64,000 bases of DNA from Escherichia coli (GCF_003334305.1 NZ_QOWS01000001.1); one strand, 5' to 3'; shown: positions 17,699 to 20,999, counted from the stretch's first letter. Notes: a model not told the origin generated them from the sequence alone. Numbers and translations: made by a program.

Positions 17699-19635
17699 AA
17701 CCCACTTTATATACTGCTACTGGTGAGTGCGTTACGCCAGGCCGTGAACTGGGCAAAGGCGGTGAAGGCGCGGTTTATGATATCAATGAGTTTGTCGATA
17801 GCGTCGCCAAGATTTATCACACGCCGCCACCCGCCTTAAAACAGGACAAACTTGCCTTTATGGCTGCGACAGCTGACGCGCAATTGTTGAATTATGTCGC
17901 CTGGCCGCAGGCAACGCTTCACGGTGGACGAGGCGGAAAAGTTATCGGTTTTATGATGCCAAAAGTTTCTGGTAAAGAACCGATTCATATGATCTATAGC
18001 CCGGCACATCGTCGTCAACGTTACCCTCATTGCGCGTGGGATTTTCTACTCTATGTTGCGCGCAATATTGCTTCATCTTTTGCTACGGTTCACGAGCACG
18101 GGCACGTCGTGGGTGACGTAAACCAGAACAGTTTTATGGTAGGTCGCGACAGCAAAGTGGTACTGATTGATAGCGACTCCTTTCAGATTAACGCCAATGG
18201 CACACTGCATTTATGCGAAGTCGGCGTGTCGCATTTTACGCCGCCAGAGCTACAAACCTTGTCGTCATTTGTCGGCTTTGAACGCACAGAAAATCACGAT
18301 AATTTTGGCCTTGCGTTGCTGATTTTTCACGTCTTGTTTGGTGGCCGGCATCCTTATTCTGGTGTGCCGCTTATCTCTGATGCGGGTAATGCGCTGGAGA
18401 CGGATATTACCCATTTCCGTTATGCCTACGCGTCAGATAATCAGCGACGTGGTTTAAAACCGCCGCCACGATCGATTCCGCTATCGATGTTACCGGGCGA
18501 TGTTGAAGCCATGTTTCAGCAGGCATTCACGGAAAGTGGCGTGGCAACCGGGCGTCCGACGGCTAAAGCGTGGGTAGCGGCACTTGATTCTCTGCGCCAA
18601 CAGTTAAAGAAATGTCCCGTTTCGGCAATGCATGTTTATCCCGCTCATTTGACCGACTGCCCGTGGTGTGCGCTGGATAATCAAGGCGTTATCTATTTTA
18701 TTGATCTCGGCGAAGAGGTCATTACCACCGGCGGTGATTTTGTGCTGGCGAAAGTCTGGGCGATGGTGATGGCGTCAGTAGCACCGCCAGCATTGCAATT
18801 GCCATTACCCGATCATTTCCAACCGACTGGCAGGCCGCTTCCTTTAGGCCTGTTACGGCGCGAATACATCATTCTGATTGAGATCGCACTGTCAGCGTTA
18901 TCGCTGTTGCTTTGCGGCCTTCAGGCAGAACCGCGTTATATTATTTTGGTTCCTGTGCTGTCGGCTATCTGGATTATTGGCAGTCTGACAAGCAAAGCGT
19001 ACAAAGCAGAAATCCAGCAACGCCGTGAGGCATTTAATCGCGCGAAAATGGACTATGAGCATTTAGTCAGCCAGATCCAACAGTTGGGCGGGCTGGAAGG
19101 TTTTATCGCCAAACGGGCGATGCTCGAAAAAATGAAGGACGAAATTCTCGGGTTACCGGAAGAAGAGAAACGCGCTCTGGCAGCACTTCATGACACTGCA
19201 AGGGAACGGCAGAAGCAGAAGTTTCTGGAGGGATTTTTTATTGATGTTGCCTCTATTCCCGGCGTTGGCCCTGCGCGTAAAGCGGCGTTACGGTCTTTTG
19301 GTATTGAAACAGCCGCAGATGTTACCCGTCGTGGCGTTAAGCAAGTGAAAGGGTTTGGCGACCATCTGACCCAGGCGGTTATCGACTGGAAAGCGAGCTG
19401 TGAACGCCGTTTTGTGTTCAGGCCGAATGAAGCGATAACGCCAGCAGACAGACAAGCGGTAATGGCGAAAATGACCGCCAAACGACATCGGCTGGAATCG
19501 ACGTTGACTGTCGGCGCGACAGAGTTGCAGCGATTCCGCCTTCATGCTCCAGCACGGACCATGCCGTTGATGGAACCTTTACGTCAGGCGGCAGAAAAAC
19601 TGGCTCAGGCGCAGGCAGATTTAAGCCGCTGCTGA
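17695..19635 (+). CDS. yegI: Atypical protein kinase-like protein YegI (kinase-like N-domain, 2 TM helices, C-terminal HhH-like region)
   Basis: ATG at 17695 overlaps yegK stop (ATGA); alternative GTG at 17686. Glycine-rich loop LGKGGEGAVY, VAKIY lysine motif, hydrophobic segments near residues 390-440, IPGVGPARKAALRSFGIETAADV HhH-like motif. Confidence 0.85.
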   Translation: MKPTLYTATGECVTPGRELGKGGEGAVYDINEFVDSVAKIYHTPPPALKQDKLAFMAATADAQLLNYVAWPQATLHGGRGGKVIGFMMPKVSGKEPIHMIYSPAHRRQRYPHCAWDFLLYVARNIASSFATVHEHGHVVGDVNQNSFMVGRDSKVVLIDSDSFQINANGTLHLCEVGVSHFTPPELQTLSSFVGFERTENHDNFGLALLIFHVLFGGRHPYSGVPLISDAGNALETDITHFRYAYASDNQRRGLKPPPRSIPLSMLPGDVEAMFQQAFTESGVATGRPTAKAWVAALDSLRQQLKKCPVSAMHVYPAHLTDCPWCALDNQGVIYFIDLGEEVITTGGDFVLAKVWAMVMASVAPPALQLPLPDHFQPTGRPLPLGLLRREYIILIEIALSALSLLLCGLQAEPRYIILVPVLSAIWIIGSLTSKAYKAEIQQRREAFNRAKMDYEHLVSQIQQLGGLEGFIAKRAMLEKMKDEILGLPEEEKRALAALHDTARERQKQKFLEGFFIDVASIPGVGPARKAALRSFGIETAADVTRRGVKQVKGFGDHLTQAVIDWKASCERRFVFRPNEAITPADRQAVMAKMTAKRHRLESTLTVGATELQRFRLHAPARTMPLMEPLRQAAEKLAQAQADLSRC

Positions 19636-19646
19636 GCCATTTTCTT

Positions 19647-20999
19647 TTAACGAAACACCACTTCCGCCCAGCGTGCCAGCCCGGCGGTGACGGAGCCAAA
19701 GTCATCGCCGCCTGCAATCGGAATTCCCGGCAACTGTTCTGCCAGCGCTTTTTTAATCAGCGGCGAACGGGCGCTACCGCCGGTCAGGTAGATAACGTCC
19801 GGTTTTTCCTGGGCGTTATCCAGGGCCAGTTGCACCTGTTCCAGAATCCGCGCCAGTGGCTGGCTGAGGGCGCTTTCCAGCCCTTGCTGGCTAATCAGCG
19901 TAGCCAGTTCATCGCTGATAAACGGCAGTGAGGCGCGGGTTTCCGCTACGCTTGAAAGAGCAATTTTGCACTCTTCTGCGCTACGCACCAGGCGATAGCT
20001 TAAACGCTGACGCCAGACTTTCTGTAGCAGGGCCACTTTTTCCGGTTCGCGGGCATCGCGTACCAGATCGTTAAGCAGACGACCGTTGGCACTACTGTAG
20101 AAATCACTCTGCGCAGGTACGTCGTTGATGGCAACCGCATTCCACCACGGCAGAATCGGCAGGGCGATGCCTTTTTCGGTTTCGCCACCCATGCCCAGTA
20201 ACGGCATCAGGTTTTTAAACGCCAGTGCGATGTCCAGATCGTTACCGCCAATACGGCAACCACTGTGACCCAGCAGGCTGGCTTCACGATCGAGACGCGA
20301 ACGCCACTGCGGCCCCATCAGCAGCAATGAACAGTCAGTCGTACCACCGCCGATATCCACCACCAGCACCCGTTTTTCTTCCTGCAAGGTGGCTTCGTAA
20401 TCCAGCCCAGCCGCGACCGGCTCGTACTGGAATACCACGTCCCTGAATCCGGCACGCTTCGCCGCGCGTTCCAGAATCCCTTGCGCCTGGGCGTTTGCTT
20501 CATCGCCGCCCAGCCCCTGGAAGTTGATCGGGCGACCAATCACCGCCTGAGTAATCGCTTCTGGCAGCTGCGCCTGCGCCTGCTGGCGAATGTGCAACAT
20601 CATTGCGCAGACCAGATCCTCAAACAGCGCTACCTGCTGCGGTTTTAAGCCGCTGGCACCGAGGAACGATTTTGGTGATTTCACAAACCACACTTCTTCT
20701 GGATCATCAATGTACTGTGCCAGTGAGGAAAGACCGAACTGCACGCTTTTCGCCGTAACATCGATATCTTCTTCGCGGTTATAACGAATCGCCCGACGTA
20801 ACAGCGCCTGCGTTTCATCGTCGTCTGCCGGAACATCATGATGGCGGTACAGCCATTCGCTTACCGATTCACGCGTTGGCGCGCAAAGCATTGAAGGCAG
20901 CAGCGTGCTGTCGTTTTCCATTTTCAGTAATTGCGGTTTACCGTCACGCATGACCGCCACTGAACAGTTTGCTGTACCGTAATCAAAACCAATAAACAC
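19647..20999 (-). CDS. yegD: Hsp70/actin-fold family protein YegD (DnaK paralog)
   Basis: 450 aa from GTG start; Hsp70 phosphate-binding motifs (FDYGTANCSVA, VVDIGGGTTD). Confidence 0.9.
   Translation of the reverse strand: MFIGFDYGTANCSVAVMRDGKPQLLKMENDSTLLPSMLCAPTRESVSEWLYRHHDVPADDDETQALLRRAIRYNREEDIDVTAKSVQFGLSSLAQYIDDPEEVWFVKSPKSFLGASGLKPQQVALFEDLVCAMMLHIRQQAQAQLPEAITQAVIGRPINFQGLGGDEANAQAQGILERAAKRAGFRDVVFQYEPVAAGLDYEATLQEEKRVLVVDIGGGTTDCSLLLMGPQWRSRLDREASLLGHSGCRIGGNDLDIALAFKNLMPLLGMGGETEKGIALPILPWWNAVAINDVPAQSDFYSSANGRLLNDLVRDAREPEKVALLQKVWRQRLSYRLVRSAEECKIALSSVAETRASLPFISDELATLISQQGLESALSQPLARILEQVQLALDNAQEKPDVIYLTGGSARSPLIKKALAEQLPGIPIAGGDDFGSVTAGLARWAEVVFR

Follow-up and report, generated by a model that had tools for sequence, protein, structure and literature searches.

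Two-way intrinsic (Rho-independent) terminators of E. coli are GC-rich palindromes, with an A-run at one flank and a T-run at the other, that lie where convergent transcription units meet, and the mRNAs that end at such a site overlap by the length of its hairpin. Convergent excludons, in the strict sense, are pairs whose expression is reciprocal and mutually exclusive; the ExcludonFinder survey (NAR 2025, PMC12288877) lists 165 convergent pairs called in 50% or more of 58 RNA-seq data sets for MG1655, and in 146 of these 165 the predicted terminators overlap, inside the neighbour's transcription unit. Ribosomes repress terminators located towards the end of a coding region, as was found in a synthetic reporter carrying the phage terminator tR2, whose efficiency dropped from about 90% to less than 10% with a stop codon 5–6 bp upstream (Li et al., NAR 2016, PMC4824070). 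Termination driven by collision of polymerases has been described at convergent pairs that have a hairpin in their 3' overlap (Ju et al. 2019, via bioRxiv 10.1101/2022.10.23.513370); these sites are described in that preprint as not resembling intrinsic terminators.

We compare with these systems the junction of the convergent genes yegI and yegD in a 64,000-nucleotide stretch of E. coli DNA (GCF_003334305.1, NZ_QOWS01000001.1; "the window"). Bases 17600–21100 of the window are 100% identical to strain A7 (NZ_CP028767.1). The features referred to below are as follows (yegI and yegD from the ORF list and the RefSeq annotation of strain A7; the other genes from the A7 annotation mapped to the window; the hairpin from folding and its inverted repeat).

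16281–16940, + strand: yegL
16937–17698, + strand: pphC
17695–19635, + strand: yegI, Ser/Thr protein kinase YegI
19592–19600, − strand: yegD-sense tail, a G and then TTTTTCTG (complement of CAGAAAAAC)
19601–19639, both strands: two-way hairpin, 39 nt
19636–19646: yegI/yegD gap, GCCATTTTCTT, 11 bp
19640–19648, + strand: T-run TTTTCTTTT, directly 3' of the hairpin and entering the yegD stop codon
19647–20999, − strand: yegD, Hsp70-family chaperone paralogue, convergent with yegI
21133–21990, + strand: alkA
22029–25346, − strand: dgcE

The gene yegI is the last of the yegL-pphC-yegI operon, and its first 4 bp are shared with the end of pphC; its frame is open from 17686 to 19635, with the annotated start at window position 17695 and a TGA stop at 19633–19635. 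The yegD stop is a TAA at 19647–19649 (TTA on the + strand), and Pfam HSP70 is recorded for the E. marmotae orthologue of this gene. The 11 bp that a sequence-only reading of this DNA had placed between the two stops is thus correct. Two gap haplotypes are present in E. coli, and since K-12 MG1655 carries the other one its gap is 12 bp rather than 11. The locus itself was found in 5424 of 5426 complete E. coli genomes. Such tight spacing is ordinary and does not exceed chance expectation: among all 34 convergent CDS pairs in 220 kb of the MG1655 annotation, gaps range from −41 to +257 bp (median 44.5), and 11 of the 34 are 12 bp or less, six of these 11 being true overlaps. The four convergent gaps inside the window are 272, 11, 38 and 275 bp.

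The same reading had argued that so short a gap leaves no room for terminator hairpins. This does not hold, because a hairpin can sit in coding sequence and needs no intergenic space, and a strong one, with a T-run on each strand, is present within the coding end of yegI. It extends from codon −11 of yegI through the stop codon and four bases into the gap. Its basal 8-bp stem pairs TGGCTCAG (19601–19608) with CTGAGCCA (19632–19639) and includes five G-C pairs; above this are an inner 5-bp stem and an 8-nt loop, with internal loops. The first four bases of the gap complete the 3' arm, and the remaining gap bases are part of the T-run. Folding energies of 19601–19639 are −22.3 kcal/mol on the + strand and −21.6 kcal/mol on the − strand (−23.1 and −22.4 kcal/mol for the 41-nt stretch 19600–19640). 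In K-12 the + strand T-run reads TTTTTCAATT. On the other flank of the hairpin from the T-run lies an A-run (19595–19599, + strand), part of the sequence CAGAAAAAC that encodes the yegI codons Ala-Glu-Lys-Leu; the U-run that it gives in the yegD direction is short (G plus U5) and is the weaker of the two tails. Each strand therefore has the features of an intrinsic terminator, a stable GC-rich stem-loop followed by a U-rich run, at the 3' end of a transcription unit. The stem begins 7 nt beyond the yegD stop, and the yegI stop is contained in its 3' arm. A simple terminator scan that considered only loops of 3–8 nt did not list this hairpin, and no Rfam family was found at the junction. A repeated palindromic (REP) element was considered and rejected, since a query of 86 nt spanning the junction has a median of one match per genome.

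In its GC-rich palindrome, its flanking A- and T-runs and its position where two convergent units meet, the site resembles the two-way intrinsic terminators of E. coli. It differs from textbook members of that class in that the hairpin is nearly all in a reading frame, contains a stop codon, is 39 nt long and has internal loops. It shares a convergent pair and a hairpin in the 3' overlap with the collision-driven sites as that preprint presents them, but unlike those sites it has U-runs on both strands. Its stop-to-stem distances fall in the range in which tR2 suffered major loss of efficiency, although the comparison is between a natural chromosomal junction and a reporter construct.

A structure of this strength is rare by chance. 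Against dinucleotide shuffles of the 41-nt stretch its z scores are −3.7 (+ strand) and −4.2 (− strand). When the whole 64-kb window was scanned for single hairpins with a T-run on both strands there were three matches, two of them strong, namely 1032–1053 (ogrK/yegQ), a textbook two-way terminator, and 19601–19639; both of the strong matches are at convergent junctions. Twenty dinucleotide shuffles of the window gave 0–3 weak matches apiece, and in only one of the 20 did a match reach −18 or lower on both strands. The coding constraint was handled by redrawing the last 12 yegI codons 5000 times with the peptide held fixed. The recoded sequences have mean energies of −13.3 and −14.6, and energies as low as those observed occurred in 0.5% and 1.2% of the draws, so the hairpin is more stable than about 99% of the synonymous recodings of the same peptide.

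Within E. coli the structure persists. The 86-nt query is present in 5412 of 5426 genomes, and an alignment was made of seven variant E. coli alleles, the window sequence, K-12 and four further lineages of Escherichia. Of the nine E. coli alleles in it (window and K-12 included), eight have an intact basal stem; the exception, strain H14, has a synonymous GCT to GCC change that leaves a G-U pair on the yegD-sense RNA and a C-A mismatch on the yegI-sense RNA. Folding energies lie between −18 and −25 across E. coli, Escherichia sp. E1V33 and strain E69. E. marmotae retains the stem with poorer tails, and in Escherichia sp. MOD1-EC7003 the hairpin is weak (−11.9 and −7.7). Over 14 Escherichia sequences, 95% (+) and 91% (−) of the cells are paired; all of the variation among these 14 is one-sided, with zero compensatory changes and hence no covariation signal for or against the structure. 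On the yegI-sense strand G-U-compatible changes are in excess, but we gave this no weight, since the conserved peptide fixes the 5' arm and leaves only the 3' arm able to vary.

That peptide deserves comment. The motif KLAQAQADL, which is partly encoded by the 5' arm, is common to the YegI homologues of Klebsiella, Piscinibacter and Chromobacterium; in the DNA of these three homologues the complementary 3' arm is missing, and the stop is not spanned by any comparable hairpin. They keep the peptide but not the 3' arm, so the palindrome is not a by-product of the protein; judged from these comparisons, it belongs to the Escherichia junction and not to the YegI protein family.

The history of the locus bears on how yegD comes to end here. 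In a scan of YegD in one genome per species (80 loci), YegI lies downstream of yegD in Escherichia only. In Citrobacter and Salmonella, homology to the window passes from the yegD stop directly to the sib/ibs region, and in Kosakonia, Buttiauxella and Raoultella a classic GC hairpin with a T-run lies immediately 3' of yegD, which indicates that yegD normally ends at an intrinsic terminator. Klebsiella spallanzanii, Piscinibacter aquaticus and Chromobacterium haemolyticum each carry the same three-gene VWA-PP2C-kinase cassette in an unrelated context, which suggests that yegL-pphC-yegI was acquired as a cassette, one end of which lies against the yegD stop. The sole terminator-like signal for yegD in Escherichia is the hairpin at the end of this cassette, and the locus can be taken to illustrate how an acquired group of three genes may come to supply a 3'-end signal to the resident gene that it adjoins. 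E. albertii has a deletion corresponding to window positions 16350–19565; what survives is about 69 nt of yegL together with the final 70 nt of yegI, in which the hairpin lies. We also considered the three genes as a candidate anti-phage defence system and make no such claim, as there was no significant match to a PADLOC family, only kinase-domain matches with E values of about 1e-4.

Published expression data bear on the claim, made in the sequence-only reading, that the two transcripts must overlap at their 3' ends. The pair yegD-yegI is among the 165 convergent excludons of ExcludonFinder (PMC12288877), as is the neighbouring pair dgcE-alkA, and the overlap is thereby borne out. With a 12-bp gap, nearly any 3' untranslated region makes an overlap under the rule used there, so the listing confirms that the transcripts overlap and is silent on how far; the pair fits the excludon class by transcript overlap alone. 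The supplements of the Adams 2021 3'-end map contain no entry for yegD or yegI. Both yegI and pphC are reported to be barely expressed in standard culture (PMC13232886), which makes strong antisense interference with yegD, a possibility raised in the same earlier reading, unlikely under those conditions.

We think that the junction is probably a single two-way intrinsic terminator, displaced into the 3' end of the yegI coding sequence. Polymerase arriving from yegI would transcribe the hairpin (19601–19639) and then the U-run (19640–19648) and be released near the yegD stop; polymerase arriving from yegD would meet the same palindrome on the other strand, followed by G and U5 (19600–19595), and its release is predicted about 50 nt inside yegI. 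From this we infer mRNA 3' ends at about 19643–19648 for yegI and 19592–19597 for yegD. In that case the mRNAs would have no more than the hairpin and its tails in common, about 50–57 nt, as at any two-way terminator, and the overlap would cover the last 14 or so codons of yegI and extend in yegD no further than its stop codon. Since both stops are on or next to the hairpin, a ribosome that closely follows the polymerase would mask part of it. Termination may be weakened in this way in both directions, leakiness being expected during active translation of the genes, and the read-through may be handled by Rho. Rho is a possible backstop: in 78-nt windows the read-through RNA has a C/G ratio of 1.2–1.5, inside the upper normal range (background median 1.0, 90th percentile 1.53).

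A true excludon would have poor termination at the junction and long read-through, with the more strongly transcribed side suppressing the other through polymerase collision and cutting of the RNA duplex by RNase III. The overlap called in at least half of the RNA-seq sets and the closeness of the stops to the hairpin, where ribosomes should repress termination, both fit this picture, and over-expression of yegJ (which lies inside the cluster in K-12) raises yegD mRNA, a sign of local cross-talk (PMC13232886). The call carries no information on overlap length, however, yegI and pphC are reported to be hardly expressed in standard growth, and the hairpin with its tails predicts a short overlap only, so we regard a true excludon as unlikely. 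Another scheme makes the hairpin a translation-gated two-way attenuator that links the triad with yegD. Once the operon is turned on, ribosomes translating yegI as far as the hairpin would melt it and polymerase would continue into yegD antisense, so that the Hsp70 paralogue would be silenced whenever the kinase triad is expressed, with the reverse possible when yegD is translated; the tight packing would then be a selected regulatory link, made when the cassette landed beside yegD. We consider this attenuator very improbable.

The hairpin might instead act mainly after transcription, as a 3' stem-loop that hinders 3'-to-5' exonucleases, with termination occurring further on by Rho or by collision. 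It is stable on both strands, the read-through RNA is moderately richer in C than in G so that Rho could act, and two-way termination by collision at E. coli convergent pairs whose overlap contains a hairpin has been described, as cited above. But such C enrichment is within the normal range for the antisense of coding DNA, and the symmetric A-run and T-run are needed by an intrinsic terminator and not by a stabiliser, and we give this role little credence. About equally doubtful is the notion that the palindrome arose by chance from the YegI C-terminal coding sequence and a remnant of the island insertion, and has no selected role. It draws on the lack of covariation, on the location of the 5' arm in a conserved peptide motif, on the decay of the hairpin in one cryptic Escherichia lineage, and on other convergent pairs with short gaps, which do without a hairpin: a comparable structure is present in none of the 10 others in the MG1655 sample, and junctions of this kind evidently need no terminator. 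Yet the shuffles predict only about 0.05 such structures per 64 kb, and this one falls precisely at one of the window's four convergent junctions; it is in the lowest 1% or so of synonymous recodings, and its 3' arm is Escherichia-specific, with the stem kept in the sampled E. coli alleles. A two-way terminator that has come to lie in the end of yegI accounts for the junction better, in our judgement, than any of these.

The arrangement belongs to an ordinary and well-known class, the pair has already been catalogued, and the embedded position of the hairpin within yegI is a modest detail. Its main value is as a correction: a short convergent gap does not imply that a terminator is absent, since the hairpin may sit in a reading frame. 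It also has a practical consequence for the design of yegI deletions. In-frame deletions of the Keio design reportedly retain only the last six codons of yegI; the 5' arm of the hairpin (codons −11 to −9) would be lost in such a mutant, along with the predicted yegD terminator, so the phenotypes of yegI deletions could partly reflect altered yegD mRNA.

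In E. albertii NBRC 107761 (locus L004, 5301-5500) there is a deletion corresponding to window 16350-19565, with the result that most of yegL, the whole of pphC and most of yegI are gone; the final 70 nt of yegI are kept beside yegD, and these include the yegI-end hairpin (19601-19639), the proposed two-way intrinsic terminator. Among E. coli strains, 6629 (L082) carries a nonsense change in yegI (CAG to TAG) that lies seven codons before the stop and within this same hairpin, and 13P484A (L087) has a frameshift in yegI. In strain I3 (L089) yegI and yegD are both annotated as partial, the C-terminus being missing from each, and the match to the junction covers only the first 52 of the 86 query bases. 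In some E. coli strains yegI is a pseudogene.

The yegL-pphC-yegI trio, which encodes VWA, PP2C and kinase proteins, is a portable three-gene cassette. It is present in Klebsiella spallanzanii (L096), Piscinibacter aquaticus (L097) and Chromobacterium haemolyticum (L098) in unrelated neighbourhoods, with YegI identities of 58–62%; the Piscinibacter cassette adjoins a BrxR-like WYL regulator, and that of Chromobacterium adjoins a KAP NTPase. No defence family was matched significantly by the trio in PADLOC. At the pphC/yegI junction of the window (17686-17698) the two genes share 4 bp and yegJ is absent, while K-12 and some other strains have an insertion of about 730 bp between the two genes, which carries yegJ on the opposite strand:

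L081 (K-12) 10987-11711: yegJ-bearing region

It has been reported that yegD mRNA goes up on yegJ over-expression (PMC13232886).

Two other hairpins in the window are as follows:

1032-1053, T-runs on both strands: palindrome AAGCCCCTCAGTCGAGGGGCTT, a perfect 9-bp stem between ogrK and yegQ
56522-56569, + strand: 48-nt hairpin of -22 kcal/mol, then GTTGTTTTAT, with galF on one side and the upstream O-antigen genes on the other

The palindrome at 1032-1053 is a textbook two-way terminator, and in a scan of the whole window for hairpins with T-runs on both strands it was the only strong match besides the yegI-end hairpin (ogrK, on one side of it, is a P2-like prophage gene). The hairpin at 56522-56569 reaches just -9 on the other strand.

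Two further loci in the window were also recorded:

15329-15471, 15657-15799 and 15986-16134, - strand: SIB RNA / ibs toxin-antitoxin, three tandem copies (Rfam RF00113, 138-150 bits)
59838-60976: wzy, an O46/O134-family O-antigen polymerase gene, which the annotation of A7 (NZ_CP028767.1), the identical strain, marks as frameshifted

The three SIB copies compare with two (sibA and sibB) at this site in MG1655. The alkA product is 285 amino acids long in the window versus 282 in K-12, and the alkA/dgcE pair is among those listed by ExcludonFinder (PMC12288877). At the alkA/dgcE junction (21980-22040) the gap in the window is 38 bp, with one REP-like palindrome, GCCTGATGCGTCGCATCAGGC; in K-12 it is 108 bp, with about 70 bp extra and a second palindromic unit present.
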